Positions 10,964 to 25,907 of a stretch of 64,000 nucleotides of DNA are shown one piece after another. The position numbers and the translations under genes were made by a program. Within the stretch, counting starts at the first letter, position 1, and the number at the start of each line of letters is the position of its first letter. Under the pieces are notes generated by a model that was not told where the DNA came from, searched no databases, and saw only the letters and a program-made list of their open reading frames with translations. This DNA comes from Bacillales bacterium UBA6380 (GTDB taxonomy: Bacteria > Bacillota_I > Bacilli_A > RFN20 > CAG-826). The stretch lies in contig DJQS01000007.1 of assembly GCA_002438785.1 (NCBI GenBank), positions 6,194 to 70,193 on the forward strand, read 5' to 3'.

Positions 10964-11380
10964 ATGGACATTATTATGAAAAATAAAATTAAAGCCTTAA
11001 GGAGTGAAGGTTATGGTTATGGAAAAATAGCGGAACTTTTAAATATATCAAAAAGCCAGGTTAGTTCGTTTTGCCGAAGAAATAATATCGATTGTATGAA
11101 TTGCTCGAACTGCATCCATTGTGCTTATTGTGGCTTACCTGTTTCTTGTTTAAATCATCATAAGAAAAAGAGGTTCTGCTCCGATAGTTGCAAGAGTAAA
11201 TACTATAACGAACTTTATAAAAAAGAAGGCAAAATCCATGGTGAAAATCTAACGTGCAAGTGCTGTGGCAAGATATTTAACTCTAAATGGAATAAGAATC
11301 AAGTATTTTGTTCGCATCAATGTTATATTACATACCGTTATAAAGGAGGTAAGAAAGATGATGGAAATAGTGCTTTATAG
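10964..11380 (+). CDS. HTH plus Cys-rich zinc-ribbon protein
   Basis: 138 aa; N-terminal HTH (GYGYGKIAELLNISKSQVSSFCRR) then multiple CxxC pairs; directly upstream of recombinases. Confidence 0.45.
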   Translation: MDIIMKNKIKALRSEGYGYGKIAELLNISKSQVSSFCRRNNIDCMNCSNCIHCAYCGLPVSCLNHHKKKRFCSDSCKSKYYNELYKKEGKIHGENLTCKCCGKIFNSKWNKNQVFCSHQCYITYRYKGGKKDDGNSAL

Positions 11381-11543
11381 AGAGAATTTAGAGAATTATA
11401 AAATTGCCATGAATTTAATAAAAACAATGCAAAACTTAGGTATTTTATCAGAAAACGACCTAAATAAGATGGGTAGAGTTTTAAGAAAAAAATATAGTAT
11501 CAAACCTAGTTCTATTTATGTCGATGATGGGTTGAATTCCTAG
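11357..11543 (+). CDS. small hypothetical protein (about 62 aa)
   Basis: ATG 11357 preceded by AAAGGAGG (11341-11348); ORF-track start at 11265 overlaps the upstream gene. Confidence 0.25.
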
Positions 11544-11584
11544 CCGTTTAGAGTGATGTATATGACTAAGGAGGTATAAAGAAA

Positions 11585-12886
11585 ATGGAAGAAAAAAGCA
11601 TTGAAAAAAGACTCGGTATGCCGTCCTTAGTTCATAAGAAAAAAGTCGCTGCATATTGTCGAGTCTCAGTTGAAAAAGATGCCATGCTCCATTCCTTATC
11701 GAACCAGGTATCCTATTATCAAGATTACATTGCTAAAAACGATGAATGGATCTATGTAGGAACTTATGCAGATGAAGGAATAAGTGGCACTAAGGTTAAT
11801 AGACCTGAATTCAATCGCCTTATTGAAGATTGTAAGGCACATAAAATCGATATGATAATTACAAAGTCAATATCGAGATTTGCTCGAAACACCACGCTCT
11901 TACTTCAAACGACAAGGCTTTTAAAAAAATTAAATATCGATGTCTATTTTGAAGAGCAGAAGATTCATAGTCTATCTAACGATGGTGAGTTAATGCTTTC
12001 TTTACTGGCTGGATTTGCTGAAGAGGAAGCTAAGTCGATGTCAAATAATGTAAGATGGAAAGTAAATAAGTTTTTTGAAGACGGTAAGATTTGGGGACTT
12101 CACAAAATATATGGCTATGATGTTATTGATGGCAAGCTAGTGGTGAATCAAAAAGAAGCTGAAGTCATAAGACTCATTTATCATCTTTATTTAGATGAAG
12201 GACTAGGAACTCATCAAATAGTCAATAGACTTGACGAACTCAATATCCCTGCTCCAAAAGCTAATGGATGGATACGATATAGTGTGCGAAATATTTTAAG
12301 ATCCATCATTTATACTGGCGAGTTGATGCTTGGTAAATATTCTCAAGAAATGAACCCTATATCACACCATAAAGAAAACGATGGAAGATACCCTTTGTAT
12401 TATGTTGAAGAAAGTCATGAGCCAATTATCAGTAAGGAACTTTATGAAAGAGCCCAGGCAACATTTAAACAAAGGAATGAAAAGTATATACCTACCAAAG
12501 AGAATAATTACTCGCCTTTTGCTGGTTTAATTAAATGTGCTAGTTGCGGAAAGAATTATCTTAGAAAGAAAAATAAGTATCGCATCTATTGGATATGTGG
12601 TCAGTTTGTTGTTGGAAAAGGTAAAAAGTGTAATCAAGCCTTATCACTTAGAGAAGATACGCTTTATGAACTTACAAAACTCGCTCTAGATATAGATGAA
12701 GTAACTGAAAAGAGTCTAGAGCCATTAGAACAAATTATGGTTCATGATTCAAAAGACCTAGATTTTATATTCAAAAACGGAGAAAAGAAAACCTATCATT
12801 TTGAGTTTAAGTCAAGAAAAGAATCGTGGACGGAAGAAATGAAAGAAGAAGCAAGAAGAAGGGGGTTATTAAATTATTATGCCTAA
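11585..12886 (+). CDS. large serine recombinase (433 aa)
   Basis: Resolvase catalytic N-terminus AAYCRVSVEKD with Ser nucleophile; recombinase and zinc-ribbon domains (CASCGKNY...C); AAGGAGG RBS. Confidence 0.85.
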   Translation: MEEKSIEKRLGMPSLVHKKKVAAYCRVSVEKDAMLHSLSNQVSYYQDYIAKNDEWIYVGTYADEGISGTKVNRPEFNRLIEDCKAHKIDMIITKSISRFARNTTLLLQTTRLLKKLNIDVYFEEQKIHSLSNDGELMLSLLAGFAEEEAKSMSNNVRWKVNKFFEDGKIWGLHKIYGYDVIDGKLVVNQKEAEVIRLIYHLYLDEGLGTHQIVNRLDELNIPAPKANGWIRYSVRNILRSIIYTGELMLGKYSQEMNPISHHKENDGRYPLYYVEESHEPIISKELYERAQATFKQRNEKYIPTKENNYSPFAGLIKCASCGKNYLRKKNKYRIYWICGQFVVGKGKKCNQALSLREDTLYELTKLALDIDEVTEKSLEPLEQIMVHDSKDLDFIFKNGEKKTYHFEFKSRKESWTEEMKEEARRRGLLNYYA

Positions 12887-14480
12887 AGTAACTAAAATAG
12901 AAGCTACTATAAATCCAAAAACAAGACTGCCAAAGAATCAATTAACAAAAAGAAAAGTTGCAGCCTATGCTCGAGTATCAACCGATAGCGATGAACAAGC
13001 CACATCCTATTCAGCTCAAGTTGATTATTATAGTCGCTATATTAAATCTAGACCTGATTGGGAGTTTGTTGATGTTTATACCGATGAAGGAATCAGTGGA
13101 ACAAATACTAAAAATAGAAATGGCTTTAATAAAATGATCGCTGATGCCTTAGATGGTAAAATTGACCTGATCATCACAAAATCAGTCTCTAGATTTGCTC
13201 GTAATACAGTCGATAGTTTAGTTAATATTAGAAAACTAAAAGAACATAATGTTGAGTGCTACTTTGAAAAAGAAAATATCTATACTTTCGATTCTAAAGG
13301 AGAGTTATTAATTACTTTAATGTCGAGTCTAGCTCAAGAAGAATCTAGGTCGATAAGTGAAAATGTAACTTGGGGACAAAGAAAGAGATTTGCTGACGGT
13401 AAGTTCTCGATGCATTTTAATAACTTTCTTGGCTATAAAAAAGGTCCGAATGGTGAAATTGAAATTGATGAAGAAGAAGCCAAAACTATCAGAGTAATTT
13501 ATAGATTGTATCTTGATGGACATTCTATCGTTGAAATTGCTAAATATTTAGATGAAAACAATTATGGTAAGCCAAATAAAAATAAAGGAACAAAATGGTC
13601 GATTTCAACTGTAAAAGGTATCTTAACTAATGAAAAATATAAAGGAGATGCCTTGCTTCAAAAAAGTTTTACTATCGATTTTTTAGGACATAAGACAAAG
13701 AAAAATGAAGGCGAGATTCCTCAATATTATGTTAAAAATTCTCATCCAGCCATCATACCTAAAGAAGAGTGGGAAATGGTACAAGATGAGATGAAAAGAA
13801 GAAAAAAAATAGGTTCAAAATATCAATTTGTCAATTCATGCTTTAGTAGTAAGCTCATATGTGAAGATTGTGGAGCGTTTTATGGTAGAAAAGTGTGGCA
13901 CTCTACTGATAAAGGAAGAAAAGTAATCTGGCAATGCAATAATAAGTTTAATCTTAGCAAAGAAAAAAGATGCAAAACTCCTCATTTGAGTGAAGAAGAA
14001 ATTAAATCAATGTTTATGAAGGCATACTTTCAACTAATGGATAAGAAGGGAAAGTATATAGATGATTTAAATGAAGTTAAAAATGCTCTTTGTGATATCG
14101 ATGAACTTGAAGACAAAATTAGAGAAAAAGATAAAGAAATAAAAACGGTTATTAGTGATGTTGAAAGTTTAGTGAAAAGTAATGCTAGTAAACCTCAAGA
14201 TCAGCTTAGTTATTATAAAAAGTATGCAGAACTAGAAGAAAAGTATAATTTATTAAAAGCTGATTACGATAAACTAGTAAGCCAAAAAGAAGAAAAAAAT
14301 GCAAAAGCAATAAGAATAGAAAAGTTTATTCAAGACATAAAAAATCATAAAGAAGAGATGGTAGAGTTTAATGAACCGCTCTGGAACTTGCTAGTTGAAA
14401 ATGCTATCGTTCATAAAGACAAATCCATAACGTTTAGGTTTCGAAGCGGTGTTGAAATTAAGGTTGAAGCTGAGGAGTGA
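12879..14480 (+). CDS. large serine recombinase (533 aa) with C-terminal coiled coil
   Basis: AAYARVSTDSDEQ catalytic motif; ICEDCGAFY...C zinc ribbon; long coiled-coil tail; 8-nt overlap with upstream recombinase. Confidence 0.85.
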   Translation: MPKVTKIEATINPKTRLPKNQLTKRKVAAYARVSTDSDEQATSYSAQVDYYSRYIKSRPDWEFVDVYTDEGISGTNTKNRNGFNKMIADALDGKIDLIITKSVSRFARNTVDSLVNIRKLKEHNVECYFEKENIYTFDSKGELLITLMSSLAQEESRSISENVTWGQRKRFADGKFSMHFNNFLGYKKGPNGEIEIDEEEAKTIRVIYRLYLDGHSIVEIAKYLDENNYGKPNKNKGTKWSISTVKGILTNEKYKGDALLQKSFTIDFLGHKTKKNEGEIPQYYVKNSHPAIIPKEEWEMVQDEMKRRKKIGSKYQFVNSCFSSKLICEDCGAFYGRKVWHSTDKGRKVIWQCNNKFNLSKEKRCKTPHLSEEEIKSMFMKAYFQLMDKKGKYIDDLNEVKNALCDIDELEDKIREKDKEIKTVISDVESLVKSNASKPQDQLSYYKKYAELEEKYNLLKADYDKLVSQKEEKNAKAIRIEKFIQDIKNHKEEMVEFNEPLWNLLVENAIVHKDKSITFRFRSGVEIKVEAEE

Positions 14481-17351: not shown

Positions 17352-18581
17352 ATGACCAAACTTATAAATCGTGCTGAATACTTAAAACAACTGATTGAGA
17401 ATAAGGATGTTGATTTAGTAAAAATAATAACTGGTATTCGCAGATGTGGGAAGTCTTCTTTACTAGATTTGCTTCATGAATACCTTTTGCAAAATGGTAC
17501 GCCAGGAGAAAATATTATTCATATGAATCTAGAATCATTACAATATCGGAATATTATTGATTATTTTAGTTTTTATGATTACGTAGCAAAACATATTGCA
17601 AAGAGTGGAAAAACGTATTTGATTTTTGATGAGCTACAGGTAATTGAGCATTGGGAAAAAGCTGTTGAATCATTTCGTTTGGATTTTAATGTGGATATCT
17701 ATATAACAGGCTCTAACGCTTACTTATTATCTTCGGAATTATCGACCTTGCTTTCGGGAAGATATGTGGAGATACGTATGTTGCCATTATCTTTCAAAGA
17801 ATTTTTGAATTTTTATAATTTTGAAGTATCTATCAGTATTGAAGAAAAATTTCAGAAATATCTTCAGTTTGGGGGAATGCCTATTTTAAGAGAATATCAA
17901 TTCAATGAGACGAGAATTAATCAGGCACTTGAAGGCATTTATTCAACTGTTGTTTTAAAAGATATTTTACTCCGCAATCCACAGGCTGATCAGTCAATTT
18001 TAGAAAAGCTTATATTGTTCCTTTGCTCGAATATTGGAAGTATAACTTCGCCAAATAGTATTGGAAATGCCTTATCTCATGAAGGAAATATAATCAAAGG
18101 AAAAGATAAGAATATTGCCAGAAAGACGGTCGATAAATATCTTGATATGCTTCATCAAGCATTCTTTTTCTACTCAGTAAGACGATATGATGTGAAAGGT
18201 AAACAATTTTTGAAAACTTTAGAAAAGAATTATATTATTGATTTAGGATTTCGAAATATGTTATTAGGGTATCGAGATGTGGATAGGGGACATATATTAG
18301 AAAATGTTGTATATTTGGAGCTTATTCGAAGAGGTTACAATGTATATATTGGTAAAATTGGAGAACTTGAGGCTGATTTTATTGCTGAAAAACCAAATGA
18401 AAAACTATATATTCAGGTTACGGAGAGTATGCAATTAATAGAAACACGAGATCGTGAATTAAAACCACTAAGAATCATTAGAGATAATTATGAAAAAATT
18501 ATTCTATCGATGGATAGAAGTTATGTAACTTCTTATGATGGAATTAAGTCATTAAATTTAATTGATTGGCTACTACAATAG
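17352..18581 (+). CDS. AAA+ ATPase (AAA_14 plus DUF4143-type)
   Basis: Walker A GIRRCGKSSLL, Walker B LIFDELQ; 409 aa architecture typical of the widespread DUF4143 ATPase family. Confidence 0.7.
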   Translation: MTKLINRAEYLKQLIENKDVDLVKIITGIRRCGKSSLLDLLHEYLLQNGTPGENIIHMNLESLQYRNIIDYFSFYDYVAKHIAKSGKTYLIFDELQVIEHWEKAVESFRLDFNVDIYITGSNAYLLSSELSTLLSGRYVEIRMLPLSFKEFLNFYNFEVSISIEEKFQKYLQFGGMPILREYQFNETRINQALEGIYSTVVLKDILLRNPQADQSILEKLILFLCSNIGSITSPNSIGNALSHEGNIIKGKDKNIARKTVDKYLDMLHQAFFFYSVRRYDVKGKQFLKTLEKNYIIDLGFRNMLLGYRDVDRGHILENVVYLELIRRGYNVYIGKIGELEADFIAEKPNEKLYIQVTESMQLIETRDRELKPLRIIRDNYEKIILSMDRSYVTSYDGIKSLNLIDWLLQ

Positions 18582-19412: not shown

Positions 19413-21515
19413 TTATTTAAATTTTGAACTTTTAAACAATTGATTTCTATTAATTGAATGATTGGTTTCGTCAAGCCAATATTCTTTACCATTTCTTGAT
19501 CCGATTTGAATAAATCCTGCTGAAGTACTTAAGCCTGTATTACCTTCTATTTTTGAGTAGAAGGTATAGTTTTCTTTAAATATAGCTCCATCATTTGTTT
19601 CTTCTATAATCCCATCTTCTAAAAGCTGATCATAGAGTTCATCGAATGAGTGATTTTCATGAGGTAATCGATAGTTTTCAATATCTGATCCTTTTTGTAC
19701 TTCAACCGCTCCATTATCTAAATAAAATAGAGCTTTTGCTTCAAGGCCTGGATTAGAAAAAAACAAATGTATATGTATAATTTCAAGATCAGAAGAAGAT
19801 ACTGCATAATATGGAAACAATGATATGACTTTATTAGTTAAATTAGCGGTTCTATCATCAATTTCTTTTGTAGTCCAATCTGGTAATTTTAAAATATCTT
19901 CATTTAATTTAAGATGACTAGTAGAAGAAAATAGGTCTACTTTATATTCCCAGATATTATTTTGCGCTTTAGAATTGTCTTTTTTAGAAATAAGTGTAAG
20001 ATTTCCTAATCTATTTCTTTGCATTAAATATTCATCCTCTGTTAAATTTAATTTAGTAAGCCATTTTTTACCATCTTGCGGCATTAAATGTTCCACACTG
20101 AGCTCTTTTAGATCAACAGGCGCAGAATTGTTAATGTTCTCAATTTTTTCTAAAACGATTCGTAATTGAGAACGTAAGATGTACATGTTATCTGTCCATA
20201 AGTGTTCTCTTAATTCCTTATCGTCAGGAACATATGATGATTTTCCTTTATTTGCATTTATCAAATGCTTTCTTAAGGCTATATCAATATTTGAATAATC
20301 GGGCTTACAAGAAGAGAGTGTATCATTTAAAACAGTAGGGAATATTCTTGTAATAGAAGATGTATCTAATGAGCATAATGCTCTTCTTATTAAGTATGAA
20401 TTGACAATTTTTATGAGATTTGCAAAAACATCATCACTTATTAGTAAATTTTGATTCATTTTATAAAATTCAAGAATAAGAGGAGCTGGCATTTCTGAAT
20501 CAATTTTTCTATAATCAATTAATTCATTTTTTATTGGATTTTTGAATTTTGTAATATCTAAATAATAAAGGTCGTTGTATCCTTTAGCATAATCTTTTAT
20601 ATCTGAAAGAATATCTTTAGGTGATAATCCGCTTTTTTGCTCTTTTTCATAGTATTCTTTGAATGTTGAATAAACAGAGTTGATATTACAAAGTCGTTTA
20701 TATTTAATTGATAAATAGATTCTAAAGAAACCTTCTAGTTTTTTGGCATTGCTATTTAAATTTTTTTCTATTTCGTTCCAATAATTTTTGTAATATATTT
20801 CTTGATCATCACTTGGAATAGTCATTAGTATATAATTTCTAATTAAATCTGATGCAGTTAATTTAGCTCCTGTTGAGTTAATACTTTCGAATATTTTTTG
20901 AGCGTTATCGTCTGAAGAAAGTGGAACACACACTAAGTATAGATTGTCCATTGCCATAAGTATTTGATTAAAAGAAAAACCATTTTTATTTAAGTCATTT
21001 ATTCTATCTTTAGTATAAATATAATTTTTGTATATGTTTGAATCAGTATTTTTAATATTATTTAAATCTTTATTGATTATTTGCTGATAAACATCATCAT
21101 CATTAACCAGTGGCTTTAGTTTGAATTTTAGTTTATCTTGTACAAATTGATTATTTAGATATTGATTCTCTAATTGTGAAGCTAAAGTAATATTGCCAGG
21201 GTCTTTTGTTTCATTTAATAAATCTCTTATTGCATACAACATAAGAAAAGTAGTGGTTAATCTTTGCTGACCATCTATTACAGAAAATTCTCTTGAAAAA
21301 GAATCTAATGGTGTATCTAAATAAATCAGAATACCTAAAAAATGTTTATCATACTTATTTTTTAATACTGCACAAAGATCATCAATATACTGTCTCACTT
21401 CTTTATTTGCTGTCCATGTGTAATTTCTTTGATACACTGGAATTACAAATTGACTTCCTACACTATTCCTTAATAATTCTAATAGACCTGTTCGTCTTGG
21501 TGGTTGATTTGTCAT
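19413..21515 (-). CDS. DUF262/DUF1524 (GmrSD-like type IV restriction / anti-phage) protein with extra C-terminal domain
   Basis: 700 aa; DGQQR motif (VIDGQQRLTT) near the N-terminus; His-Me finger motif SVEHLMPQ in the second half; about 130 extra C-terminal residues. Confidence 0.75.
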   Translation of the reverse strand: MTNQPPRRTGLLELLRNSVGSQFVIPVYQRNYTWTANKEVRQYIDDLCAVLKNKYDKHFLGILIYLDTPLDSFSREFSVIDGQQRLTTTFLMLYAIRDLLNETKDPGNITLASQLENQYLNNQFVQDKLKFKLKPLVNDDDVYQQIINKDLNNIKNTDSNIYKNYIYTKDRINDLNKNGFSFNQILMAMDNLYLVCVPLSSDDNAQKIFESINSTGAKLTASDLIRNYILMTIPSDDQEIYYKNYWNEIEKNLNSNAKKLEGFFRIYLSIKYKRLCNINSVYSTFKEYYEKEQKSGLSPKDILSDIKDYAKGYNDLYYLDITKFKNPIKNELIDYRKIDSEMPAPLILEFYKMNQNLLISDDVFANLIKIVNSYLIRRALCSLDTSSITRIFPTVLNDTLSSCKPDYSNIDIALRKHLINANKGKSSYVPDDKELREHLWTDNMYILRSQLRIVLEKIENINNSAPVDLKELSVEHLMPQDGKKWLTKLNLTEDEYLMQRNRLGNLTLISKKDNSKAQNNIWEYKVDLFSSTSHLKLNEDILKLPDWTTKEIDDRTANLTNKVISLFPYYAVSSSDLEIIHIHLFFSNPGLEAKALFYLDNGAVEVQKGSDIENYRLPHENHSFDELYDQLLEDGIIEETNDGAIFKENYTFYSKIEGNTGLSTSAGFIQIGSRNGKEYWLDETNHSINRNQLFKSSKFK

Positions 21516-22083
21516 TTTTACTGTTCCTTATTTATCATTTTGAAATGTAGTCCATAATATTTTAAAATCACAATTTAGGGTCTTGCAAATTTTACATAAA
21601 GCATCAATATTTATATTTTTAAATTTTATGGTTTTTGCCATAGTAGAAGTTCTTATTCCAGAAAGATTAGTTAATTCCTTCTTGTTTTAATTCTTATTAA
21701 TTGCAATATTCATAATCTGTTATAACTATTCATTTTAGTAAACAAACTCTCTCTTTAAATAAGATATACTTTAATTTTTTTATTTATCAATAAACATAAA
21801 GTTTAAGAATACATAAAAAAGCTTTGATTTTAAAATACATTGGTTAGTTTTTATTATTAATCTACATATCTTTCAATAATAGTTGTATTAAACAATTTGT
21901 AAATTAACAAATTGATTAAATTATCTATCTCCAAATATATTATTCTAAGTTAATAGCAGATGTAGTCAAAAAATCCGTATTCTCAATTGTTACAATTTAT
22001 TATGACTTCATCACTAACTCGCTAATTGGTAAAATAAATATTATTATTGATGAAAATATAAAATAATCTTTGACAATATTTAC

Positions 22084-22093
22084 GGGGGGGGGG
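22084..22093. repeat. G10 homopolymer tract in promoter region
   Basis: tacGGGGGGGGGGttaat; 30 bp upstream of the AAAGGAGGAAG RBS of the 22124 gene; extreme outlier in 27% GC DNA. Confidence 0.9.
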
Positions 22094-22123
22094 TTAATAT
22101 TATAAAAAAAGGAGGAAGAAAAA

Positions 22124-22609
22124 ATGTCAAAGAAAAAAGGGGTTGTTTCAAGTTTTGTTCTAACTATTTTATTCTTTTTAGGAGTTTTATCAGTTCTTTT
22201 CTTTAATCAATGTACAGCTGCAGGAATGTTAAATGAAGAAACTGTTACATTATTTGCGCTTATTGGTGCAGTAATTGACGAAGGAGAAGGTGGATTATTA
22301 GTATTAGCTTTTGTAGTTTTATTAATTACTTTTTTAGTTAGGTTCATTTTATTTTTGATTTTAGCTTTAGCTAAATGCAATATAATTAAAAAAGAATCTT
22401 TCGATGAAAAACTAGTTAAAATTTTAAATATTGTAGACACAATTTGCTTTGTCATTGACGATGTTGCTATATTATATATATTCTTCTATTATGTGATAGG
22501 TGGAAATCCGATATTTTCTGTTTATGGCTTGCCAATAGATGCATTTTATTTTGGTATAAGTATGGCTGCTTATTTAATTACAAGGAAAATGGCTAAACAA
22601 ATAGCATAA
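22124..22609 (+). CDS. small polytopic membrane protein (161 aa), function unknown
   Basis: Four or five hydrophobic segments; strong RBS. Confidence 0.45.
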   Translation: MSKKKGVVSSFVLTILFFLGVLSVLFFNQCTAAGMLNEETVTLFALIGAVIDEGEGGLLVLAFVVLLITFLVRFILFLILALAKCNIIKKESFDEKLVKILNIVDTICFVIDDVAILYIFFYYVIGGNPIFSVYGLPIDAFYFGISMAAYLITRKMAKQIA

Positions 22610-22628
22610 TTAAGTTTAATTATTTTAT

Positions 22629-22670
22629 AAAAAGAACTATCAAATATTTTTTAAATTTGATAGTTCTTTT
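22629..22670. terminator. bidirectional rho-independent terminator
   Basis: AAAAAGAACTATCAAA / TTTGATAGTTCTTTT perfect 15-bp stem flanked by A- and T-runs, between convergent genes. Confidence 0.55.
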
Positions 22671-22708
22671 ATTAAGTAGTTAAGATTATCTAAATTTATT
22701 TTAAGATA

Positions 22709-25700
22709 TTACTTATTTACTTTATATTTTTTAATAAAGATTAAAATAATAATTCCTAATATAGAAAGAATCGATATAAGAATACTCATACTAATAATAT
22801 TACCACCACAACCATTTTTATTAGATTCGCTATTAGTATTTTCTTTTTTATAATTTGTCAATTTAAACTTATATTCAACTGATCCATCAACCATATTTAT
22901 TTTAATAATATGTTCATTTGTTTCTAATGTGTTTAAATATTCATTTGTAAAAGTAATTGTTGATTTAGAATAATCTAAAACATATGAATTTTTATCTAAT
23001 TCTTTTTCATCAATGAGAATATTAATTAAATCTTTTAAATCGCCATTAATTGTTAAAACTAAATCATTTTTAGAATTTAAATCGATTTCTGCAGTGTTTC
23101 CCTTAATTTCATATACTTTTTTATAATTACAAGCTATACTTCCGATTGATAAAGAACCACTTGTAACCCCATCTTTAAATCTATAAACTGGACGATTACC
23201 ATTACTAGTATAACTAGCATCACTAATAGCAAACCCTTCATAATTATCTTCTATATTTAATTTAGTTGGAGGAAGAATGTGAGTAATTGTATTTCCTTCT
23301 TTATTAAATTTAATAGTTGCACCGACATTCTTATAACCATTGTCACTCATAACATATAATTCTTTATTATATGTATCAAAATCCATAGCCATAGCTCCAC
23401 CTAATTTAGAATCATATTCATTAATTAAAGTATATGTTCCATCATTATTTAAAACATAGGCATAAACAAATCCATTATCTTCTAAAGCAACAAAGAATAT
23501 TCCATCATTTATTGAATTTTTATAATTATCTATATTAAAGAGTTCGTTAGTATTTTTATCAATTATAGAACCTTCAATATCCTTGTAAGAAACATATTCA
23601 ACCGATTCAATACCCATATTAGCACTAACGCTAGGTAAAGAAGAAGTAATATCCCATTCCTTAGAAGCAACAATTTCATTGCTATCCTTATTTGGATCAA
23701 CCATTAAGATTGTATTATAGTTAACTCCTTTATTTGAATTATCTCTTTCTGAAGCTAAATAAACAAATCCATTGTCATCAACTGTAATTCCTTCAGCATC
23801 AGGACCTTTTGCAGTTAAATTATCCTTATCTTTAATAAATTTGACTTTTTTACCTTTAGAAAATCCTTCTTTAAAGTTCATTGAACCATCTTTATTGACA
23901 TCTAAAATCCAAAAGGTAGCTGTACCATTATCAACTGCATATAATTGATTATTATAAAAATCTAAGCCAGAAGAATCTTCTAAGAATAAACTTTCCTTAT
24001 CAAATATTTCGATTTCGTTACTTCCTGGCCAATTTATTTTTTCAGGAATATCTTTAAATTTATTAGCACTACCAGGAGTTTCAACCATTGTATTTTGATA
24101 GGTATTGCCATTAAAGTCTGGGTATAATCCCCAAGTCGGATTAGTATCTCCTATCCAAGTAGTTTCAGCTAATAATTGAGAATTATTATCATATAATCTA
24201 ACTGAATCATCTTTTCCTAAACCAAAACTTAAATCTGATATCACAAGATAACCATAAGGCTCAATTGTGGTGCCATCTTTAACTTTGTAAATATTATCAT
24301 CTTTATTATCTTTAATTATAAAATTAGAAATATCAATTTTTTCACTAGTAGGATTAGCAAGTTCTACCCAATCGTTTTCGTTTTCTTTAGGATTTGATTG
24401 TATTTCATTTAAAACAACAGGACTTGTAACTTTATTTAATTTTCCTTTACTAGATGTTGGATAGTCAACAAATTCACCTGTGCCATTAGGAATTCGAGCA
24501 TAAACCCCATTAGCATGAGCACCACTCCATGAATAAGAATCAATTAATAGCTCATCTTTATTATATAAATTAGCTTCATCAGATTTTCCAAGCCCAAAAC
24601 TAAAATCTTTATTTTGCTCAAAAACATAAATTTGATTAGGGTTTAACAAAGTATTATCAGCAACTGGCGTTACTTCGTTTTTCCTAGCTAATTTATCACT
24701 ATCATAAATATGCCAACCTGAAATATCAATCGGAGTAGTTCCAATATTTATAATTTCAACATAATCGATGCCACCATTAGGATCATCAGATTCAATTTCA
24801 TTTATTTTTACTTCTGGTTTATACCATTCATTAGCTTTATTTTTTGTTTCTTTAGTTAATGTAAATGAACCTGTTCCGTCAGGATAACGCCCATAACTAG
24901 CTTTAGCTCCATCCCCATCATAACTTGCGTGGCTAGTCCATGAATATTCATCGATTAATTCTTCTTTTTTATTATAAAGTCTTATAGAATCTCCTCCGCC
25001 TAGGCCGATATCATATTTACCTTCAATATATGTCTTAGTTGTATCATCATAAGCTTGACCAATTGTATTATTATCAATTACGTAAAAACTTTTTGAAGCA
25101 AGCTTTGTTCCTTCTTTAATTTTAAAACGATGATCATCACTATTATCTCTAATTTCATAATTTGATAAATCAATCTCACTATCACTATTATTATAAAGTT
25201 CGATCCAATCATCAGGTTGACTATTAACTTCATTAATTACTAATGGTTTACTTGTATCGGTAATTGGCTCTTCCTTAACGATATTTAATTCACCTTTAGT
25301 AGAATCTTGATCAATAAAATCACCTAAGCCATCTGGCACTCTGGAGTAAGTACCACTAGCTTGAGTAGTATATGTATAAGTATCGATTAATTCTTGATTT
25401 TTATTATAAAGATTAGCTGTATCAGCTTTCCCTAAGCCAAAAGAAAAATTAATTCCTCCTTCTAAAACTAATACTTCATTGCTTTTTAAAATCGTTCCTT
25501 CTTTAATTAAAGTTGTTTCATTATTTGTAAGATTTTCTAAACCTTTTTCATCACTAACAAAATAACCACCAATATCAATATCATTAGTTCCTACATTAAT
25601 AATTTCAATCCAATCTTCACCACCATTAGCATCCTTTGATTCGATTTCATTAATTCTTATACTTTCTTTTTTAAGTTCGTTTTGATTTCTTTTAACTATT

Positions 25701-25768
25701 TTATTATTTATTGATATTCCACTAACACTAATTAAAGAACTTAATACTAATAAACTTGCTTTTAACAT
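22709..25768 (-). CDS. surface protein with four lamin-tail-domain (LTD) repeats, phytase-like/beta-propeller region and C-terminal TM anchor
   Basis: Start refined to MLKASLLVLSSLISVSG signal peptide (ATG complement 25766-25768, GGGAG RBS); four repeats of the INE(I/V)xS...DW(I/V)E(L/I)xN...(I/L)D(I/L)S(N/G)(Y/W/F) pattern; C-terminal hydrophobic anchor. Confidence 0.6.
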   Translation of the reverse strand: MLKASLLVLSSLISVSGISINNKIVKRNQNELKKESIRINEIESKDANGGEDWIEIINVGTNDIDIGGYFVSDEKGLENLTNNETTLIKEGTILKSNEVLVLEGGINFSFGLGKADTANLYNKNQELIDTYTYTTQASGTYSRVPDGLGDFIDQDSTKGELNIVKEEPITDTSKPLVINEVNSQPDDWIELYNNSDSEIDLSNYEIRDNSDDHRFKIKEGTKLASKSFYVIDNNTIGQAYDDTTKTYIEGKYDIGLGGGDSIRLYNKKEELIDEYSWTSHASYDGDGAKASYGRYPDGTGSFTLTKETKNKANEWYKPEVKINEIESDDPNGGIDYVEIINIGTTPIDISGWHIYDSDKLARKNEVTPVADNTLLNPNQIYVFEQNKDFSFGLGKSDEANLYNKDELLIDSYSWSGAHANGVYARIPNGTGEFVDYPTSSKGKLNKVTSPVVLNEIQSNPKENENDWVELANPTSEKIDISNFIIKDNKDDNIYKVKDGTTIEPYGYLVISDLSFGLGKDDSVRLYDNNSQLLAETTWIGDTNPTWGLYPDFNGNTYQNTMVETPGSANKFKDIPEKINWPGSNEIEIFDKESLFLEDSSGLDFYNNQLYAVDNGTATFWILDVNKDGSMNFKEGFSKGKKVKFIKDKDNLTAKGPDAEGITVDDNGFVYLASERDNSNKGVNYNTILMVDPNKDSNEIVASKEWDITSSLPSVSANMGIESVEYVSYKDIEGSIIDKNTNELFNIDNYKNSINDGIFFVALEDNGFVYAYVLNNDGTYTLINEYDSKLGGAMAMDFDTYNKELYVMSDNGYKNVGATIKFNKEGNTITHILPPTKLNIEDNYEGFAISDASYTSNGNRPVYRFKDGVTSGSLSIGSIACNYKKVYEIKGNTAEIDLNSKNDLVLTINGDLKDLINILIDEKELDKNSYVLDYSKSTITFTNEYLNTLETNEHIIKINMVDGSVEYKFKLTNYKKENTNSESNKNGCGGNIISMSILISILSILGIIILIFIKKYKVNK

Positions 25769-25907
25769 AAATTTCTCCCTTTTAGAGAATTTTATTAATT
25801 TTTGGAGTGAGTATTCTATCAATAATCTGTAAATTAAATGTAAATAACTTATATAAATATATATTTTATGTAATTAAAATTAATATAAAATAATGTTAGA
25901 GGTTAAT

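Follow-up and report, generated by a model that had tools for sequence, protein, structure and literature searches.

This locus raises the question of whether a run of ten G residues, situated a short distance upstream of the gene for a small membrane protein in a very AT-rich genome, is a phase-variation switch that operates through the spacing of a promoter. The window, by which we mean the whole 64 kb stretch of DNA that was analysed, has a GC content of 27.2 %, and the run, GGGGGGGGGG, occupies exactly positions 22084–22093 of its plus strand, as read from the window sequence. It is the sole run of G or C longer than 5 nt in the 64 kb, the next longest being four runs of G5 and one of C5; in dinucleotide-preserving shuffles, 0.05 runs of at least G8 were expected, and the observed count was reached in 0 of 100 shuffles. 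The observation is thus far from chance, because the expectation from shuffles is only 0.05 and the next G/C runs reach only 5 nt. This bears out the original prediction, which held the tract to be non-random in a genome of 27 % GC and placed it at the coordinates above, where it was found again in the sequence; it also recurs in 31 independently assembled records. The stretch 22070–22126 reads TTGACAATATTTAC-GGGGGGGGGG-TTAATATTATAAAAAAAGGAGGAAGAAAAAATG, with 16 nt between the end of the tract and the ribosome binding site. The tract has at least the slippage-prone size of about 7 nt both in the window (G10) and elsewhere (G8–G11), with a G6 variant in addition. Phase variation through an intragenic frameshift was considered and rejected, the tract being outside the reading frame, with its end 30 nt 5′ of the ATG and upstream of the ribosome binding site.

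The tract belongs to a compact unit, in which it is preceded by a perfect −35 box and followed by a −10 box, a strong ribosome binding site, an ATG and a terminator (Table 1). The −35 and −10 boxes were assigned from consensus and conservation, and the position of the −10 box in particular is putative. Sequence variation around the promoter is far from even: SNPs are densest in the 84 nt 5′ of the ATG (22040–22123), at 7.1 per 100 nt, as opposed to 1–2 per 100 nt in the remaining intergenic region and 2.9 in the gene. Despite this peak around them, the hexamers and the ribosome binding site are spared, and the −35 box, the −10 region and the ribosome binding site are the same in all loci except for one base in a contig with 2.9x coverage (L006). 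The predicted location in a promoter spacer agrees with these data, in that the tract probably separates TTGACA from TAATAT or TATTAT and both boxes are kept while neighbouring bases vary. The strong hairpin downstream of the gene folds with −23.7 kcal/mol (z-score of −6.3 against shuffles) and acts as a terminator, which makes the 161-aa gene monocistronic.

Table 1. Coordinates in the window of the putative promoter module and of the gene downstream.
Feature	Position	Strand	Remark
−35 hexamer TTGACA, perfect consensus	22070–22075	+	Same in every locus covering the box
Promoter spacer, 19 nt in the window: ATATTTAC + G10 + T	22076–22094	+	
G10 homopolymeric tract, hypermutable element	22084–22093	+	Length alleles across loci
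Putative −10 region, TAATAT (22095–22100) overlapped by alternative TATTAT (22098–22103)	22095–22103	+	Consensus reading
Ribosome binding site AGGAGG, 8 nt 5′ of ATG	22110–22115	+	Unchanged in all loci
Candidate controlled gene, 161 aa, ATG at 22124	22124–22609	+	Listed ORF
Hairpin terminator separating the small gene from the convergent LTD gene	22627–22672		RNA fold

The length of the spacer preceding TAATAT equals that of the tract plus 9 nt, that is, 17 (the canonical spacing), 18, 19 and 20 nt for G8, G9, G10 and G11, respectively, while the alternative TATTAT would be preceded by a spacer of 17–18 nt at G5–G6. A promoter scanner with a spacer limit of 16–18 nt did not call the window promoter in its G10 state, because the 19-nt spacer exceeds this limit. 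In the commonest states, G10 and G9, the spacer is longer than optimal, which would mean that expression of the gene is mostly low or off, unless our reading of the −10 box is offset.

We then compared the tract among copies of the locus. The exact protein and seven near-identical variants led to 31 assembled loci, and a scan of metagenome DNA added one more (L032). One locus (L015) falls short of the tract, and the length observations (n = 32) thus derive from the window and 31 metagenome or MAG loci. The alleles were G6 in six cases, G8 in one, G9 in ten, G10 in 13 (window included) and G11 in two. Contigs L008 and L009, which come from different samples, differ over ca. 3.5 kb by one SNP and by the tract, G11 versus G8; together with L012, from a third sample, they have identical flanks over ca. 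1.19 kb, yet carry G11, G8 and G9. Likewise, one identical 486-nt haplotype of the gene is present in ten loci, and the nine of them that cover the tract have G8, G9, G10 or G11. In a 1.2-kb alignment of 19 sequences the tract was the only indel with more than two alleles, ragged sequence ends excluded, and among 21 homopolymers in a 3.5-kb alignment of 12 sequences length varied in only two, namely the tract, with four alleles, and a T7/T6 run, with two. The tract changes far faster than point substitutions accumulate, and its variation therefore bears the signature of slipped-strand mispairing. An invariant length across strains had been named beforehand as the outcome speaking against a switch; instead, we found lengths of 6, 8, 9, 10 and 11, some of them with identical flanks, all the variation recorded being between samples or assemblies. 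On one flank haplotype the tract was found both above and below the modal length, as would be compatible with reversibility. The G6 alleles contain an adjacent A-to-G change and appear in several backgrounds; in our view they represent contracted variants of greater stability, in which TATTAT, at 18 nt, could still drive transcription. The tract and the gene had one and the same relative orientation in the window and in the 31 covering loci, and phase variation through an invertible promoter was rejected. Carriers of the locus are MAGs and gut-type metagenome assemblies; two exact-pattern scans of species-representative genomes, one for the promoter with a variable gap and the other for the ribosome binding site plus the gene start, gave no match, and the locus is therefore absent from them.

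The tract itself is not an assembly artefact, being internal to long contigs with coverage of up to 28x. The differences in length might nevertheless be sequencing or assembly errors at a difficult homopolymer, given that many contigs have a coverage of 2–5x, where calls of homopolymer length are less reliable, and that six contigs (L006, L015, L022, L023, L028 and L031) end within ca. 110 nt upstream of the ATG and the contig of a homologue (L034) ends 59 nt 5′ of its own ATG, suggesting that assemblers struggle at this spot. We consider this explanation highly improbable, since well-covered contigs also differ: G10 was found at 28x, G9 at 8.3x and, as the extremes with stated coverage, G11 at 25.6x and G6 at 14.6x and 17x, the G8 allele coming from a single Logan contig with coverage unstated. 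Moreover, three near-identical contigs of 62,963, 63,047 and 63,031 nt (from NCBI, JGI and ENA, and probably derived from the same data) all have G9, and the A and T runs of 6–7 nt in the same contigs are without such scatter. Contigs that end beside the tract include the 13.6-kb L031 and, for the homologue, the 24-kb L034; these breaks fit either heterogeneity of length at the level of reads or poor sequencing through the tract.

The gene downstream had been described as coding for a polytopic membrane protein, and four transmembrane helices are indeed predicted in its 161-aa product. The protein had no match in Pfam, PADLOC or PHROGs, and its relatives among billions of proteins comprise only one cluster at 90 % identity, with eight variants, and three further clusters at 50 % identity: a HMMER scan of 1.84 billion representative proteins retrieved only three other clusters, and a profile search added three sequences. 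An AlphaFold model (pLDDT of 86) consists of four long helices, and structure searches returned only generic four-helix bundles and tetraspan proteins. The ORF is intact in 32 of 32 copies. Within the species, nine codons vary only synonymously and five with a change of amino acid, over 106 synonymous and 377 non-synonymous sites; the resulting pN/pS of ca. 0.19, our own estimate from codon counts, indicates purifying selection on the gene.

Length variation by itself attests to mutability only, and the tract could be a neutral mutational hotspot devoid of any regulatory role; the G6 alleles, where the tract shrinks in several backgrounds and the gene is retained, would fit this idea. Comparison with homologues makes it rather improbable. 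The layout consisting of a −35 box, 8–9 nt, G10 and a −10 box recurs in two of the three other subfamilies, at 30–37 % identity. The homologue P0009 (36 % identity) has the promoter TTGACT-AAAAATGAC-G10-TATTAT and, unlike the gene in the window, is flanked by genes for a GDSL lipase and a beta-galactosidase on either side, whereas P0011 (30 % identity) comes second in an operon with the promoter TTGACA-AAGCTTAAC-G10-TATATT, the first gene of which codes for a DUF6273 lipoprotein with a lipobox. The −35 boxes of the homologous promoters in L033 (TTGACT) and L040 (TTGACA) are each 9 nt 5′ of their own G10. In the window, P0009 and P0011 alike, the spacer is 19 nt at G10 and would be 17 nt at G8, and in all three divergent promoters a TA-rich hexamer follows the tract directly or after 1 nt. 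The P0010/P0185 subfamily has an ordinary promoter in which the tract is absent. Across 159 kb of fetched loci, every G/C run of at least 7 nt sits in such a promoter. A G10 is strongly disfavoured at 27 % GC, yet it is kept at the same place of the promoter in these distant homologues, whose other promoter bases have diverged, and the gene itself is under purifying selection. The persistence of G10–11 at the same position in DNA of 25–29 % GC, while other bases diverge, argues that selection favours the mutable tract instead of simply tolerating it. The proposal of a slipped-strand switch thus draws its support from both the hypervariability in length and the layout conserved in homologues of such low identity.

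A second poly-G promoter is present in the same species, at 12505–12526 of the minus strand of L032, and reads TTGACA-ATCGT-G11-TAAATT, followed by AAGGAG and ATG; its spacing differs, with 16 nt at G11. The gene that follows (11263–12477, minus strand) has a TAA stop at codon 40 and then an in-frame ORF of 340 aa, with two transmembrane segments, a coiled coil and a Cys-rich C-terminus, and it represents a pseudogene or, alternatively, a gene preceded by a leader peptide. The strain variant represented by L032 carries a Macro-domain island.

The tract, even if hypermutable and affecting expression, could act other than through the distance between −35 and −10, as a regulator binding site or next to one, as in opc or nadA, by influencing promoter melting or within the 5′ UTR of a transcript that starts at a promoter farther upstream. 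Promoters with poly-G/C tracts acting by means other than spacing have been described, and an effect of poly-G on promoter melting was proposed for tprL of Treponema pallidum (PMC7864442). In our locus, the promoter scanner found other promoter-like matches upstream, for instance at 21912–21941. Additionally, a motif of ca. 35 nt that could be a regulator site is common to the sequences upstream of the −35 boxes in L033 (4880–4945) and L040 (70–130). We regard this alternative as unlikely, though less so than a neutral hotspot, in view of the three divergent promoters, in which TTGACA or TTGACT precedes the tract by 8–9 nt, a hexamer comes after it and the 19-nt spacer is the same. The ca. 35-nt motif has no recognisable copy in the window, the G run has no complementarity to the AGGAGG ribosome binding site, and Rfam contained no RNA element for 21400–22800. 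The motif has the form TGTCTACTTTATTAATAGC..TTCAT..AGCACTTCAC, also written CTACTTTATTAATAGC..AGCACTTCAC, and its part AGCACTTC recurs in L042, ahead of the promoter that lacks a tract; the motif may represent a regulator site or what is left of a duplicated promoter cassette.

We therefore favour, with a probability of roughly 0.7, a switch based on slipped-strand mispairing of the tract, which would lie within the spacer of the sigma-70-type promoter serving the 161-aa gene; this reading is built on sequence comparisons. During replication, the G run would gain or lose G residues by slippage, and the change in length would alter both the distance and the rotational phasing between TTGACA and TAATAT. 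The strongest transcription is predicted at G8–G9, and the common G10 state, as well as G11, is predicted to be weak or off; G6 would be a more stable state using the overlapping TATTAT at 18 nt. A population would then be a mix of expression states of the small four-helix membrane protein. What we infer in this model includes the transcription start site, the ON length, reversibility within a clone and the biological benefit.

The original prediction also involved the genes on both sides of the module. The gene upstream, on the minus strand, had been called GmrSD-like, and its product matched both Pfam GmrSD_N and GmrSD_C; it is an intact gene of 700 aa for a type IV restriction enzyme (19413–21515). 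That the tract lies in a divergent region shared with this gene holds for the window, but the arrangement is strain-specific, with a Macro-domain gene on the same strand upstream in other strains. A divergent promoter shared with GmrSD was rejected as well, since the start of GmrSD is ca. 570 nt away and the module is unchanged where the Macro-domain gene replaces it. The large surface protein beyond the small gene, which had been tied to the switch, did not fare better: it is convergent, lies beyond the terminator and is absent from the loci of the homologues, and for these reasons it is not part of the switch.

Comparison of the window at ca. 21516–22020 with L007, L011 and L032 showed that strains have exchanged the region 5′ of the promoter module. 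Most strains contain GmrSD on the minus strand, and these three contain a Macro-domain gene, a PD-(D/E)XK fragment and the poly-G-driven gene for a protein with two transmembrane segments. Homology is regained ca. 50 nt 5′ of the −35 box, which puts the promoter and the small gene at the fixed edge of a variable island. GmrSD was disrupted independently in other strains over the region compared (L002, L005, L014, L017, L018, L024, L027, L029 and L030): L002 and L005 have a contraction from (GT)4 to (GT)3 at nt 583, in six loci a stop follows codon 41 without any indel, and L018 lacks 1 nt. The pattern resembles recurrent loss, and slippage may also occur at the GT repeat itself. The LTD surface protein (22709–25822, minus strand) has four lamin-tail domains, a phytase-like domain, a signal peptide and a C-terminal transmembrane anchor, and is of 1019 or 1037 aa, with other records calling 1019 aa from an internal ATG. 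In L010 (2086–3465) it is called as a truncated product of 459 aa and in L013 it is split in two, and it may thus also be disrupted in some strains.

These genes belong to a defence-island-like stretch that contains a PDC-S01 ATPase, GmrSD, the LTD protein, a NUDIX protein (PDC-S07) and a DUF3427-type type IV restriction enzyme. Because the neighbours of the homologues are unrelated, we draw no functional link between the small gene and any of its neighbours. A few kb upstream of the defence genes, ORF 12879–14480 codes for a large serine recombinase, similar to CcrB and XisF, and is adjacent to ORF 11585–12886; the stretch at 11–30 kb may be an integrated mobile island.

The UvrA protein encoded in the window shares 82 % identity with the one from Candidatus Onthovivens merdipullorum, and Onthovivens is placed by GTDB in Bacilli; RFN20; CAG-826 (supplement of PMC13092985). 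Codon CGG was found once among 16,601 codons from 40 ORFs, at codon 66 of ORF 17352–18581, as opposed to 49 CGA and 263 AGA codons. In Onthovivens genomes CGG is reported to be reassigned from Arg to Trp (PMC13092985), and the single CGG of the window may not encode Arg.

Poly-G tracts between −35 and −10 set transcription via spacing in Neisseria meningitidis porA (van der Ende et al., 1995, as summarised in PMC7864442) and in T. pallidum tp0126 (PMC7864442). The candidate switch resembles that of porA in having a G run in a putative sigma-70-type spacer; in porA, the length of the run sets the spacing and thereby the transcription of a single gene for an envelope protein. It differs in that porA codes for a porin of a proteobacterial pathogen, whereas here the host belongs to low-GC uncultured gut Bacilli and the product is a small four-helix protein of the cytoplasmic membrane. 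The tprE/G/J genes of T. pallidum are transcribed only with at most eight G residues, though longer runs are common (Giacani et al., PMC7864442), in a manner reminiscent of our promoter, for which G8 is predicted to be optimal while G9–G10 predominate. T. pallidum also has promoter runs of poly-G of 7–12 nt and several such promoters per genome; nevertheless, it belongs to another phylum, other gene families are involved, and lengths within strains and reporter activities have been measured there, as opposed to variation between samples only in this work. In the vlp promoters of Mycoplasma hyorhinis, a poly-A tract is situated between −35 and −10. These share with our locus a homopolymer in the (here putative) promoter spacer of genes for membrane proteins or lipoproteins (the operon in L040 starts with a lipoprotein gene) and a very low-GC lineage with reduced genomes, although the tract is of G and not of A and we saw no sign of a multigene family of the vlp kind, in which coding regions are repetitive.

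Although the mechanism is a classical one, novelty lies in the host lineage, in the private family of proteins that bears the switch and in the indication that a genome may have several promoters of this kind. To our knowledge, phase variation through simple sequence repeats has been studied almost wholly in pathogens, such as Neisseria, Haemophilus, Campylobacter, Helicobacter, Treponema and Mycoplasma, and in gut commensals attention has centred on invertible promoters. The locus offers a clean case, obtained from metagenomes alone, of a candidate poly-G spacer switch in uncultured, very low-GC gut Bacilli. Records of homopolymer switching in commensal Firmicutes may be too few, because the tract is collapsed to a single length in assemblies.

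More tentatively, and with the odds rather against it, poly-G spacer switches could be lineage-wide in the Onthovivens-like gut Bacilli of RFN20/CAG-826, and the four-helix protein could be a phage receptor or exclusion factor, as it lies at the edge of a swap-prone defence island. If so, several unrelated genes for membrane proteins or lipoproteins per genome would carry the cassette of TTGACA, a short linker, G10–11 and a −10 box, the candidates being the four-helix family, the DUF6273 lipoprotein operon and the two-TM coiled-coil protein. This would amount to a ‘phasome’ comparable to that of Campylobacter or T. pallidum in commensal Firmicutes, in which the stochastic expression of the four-helix protein would trade off phage sensitivity.
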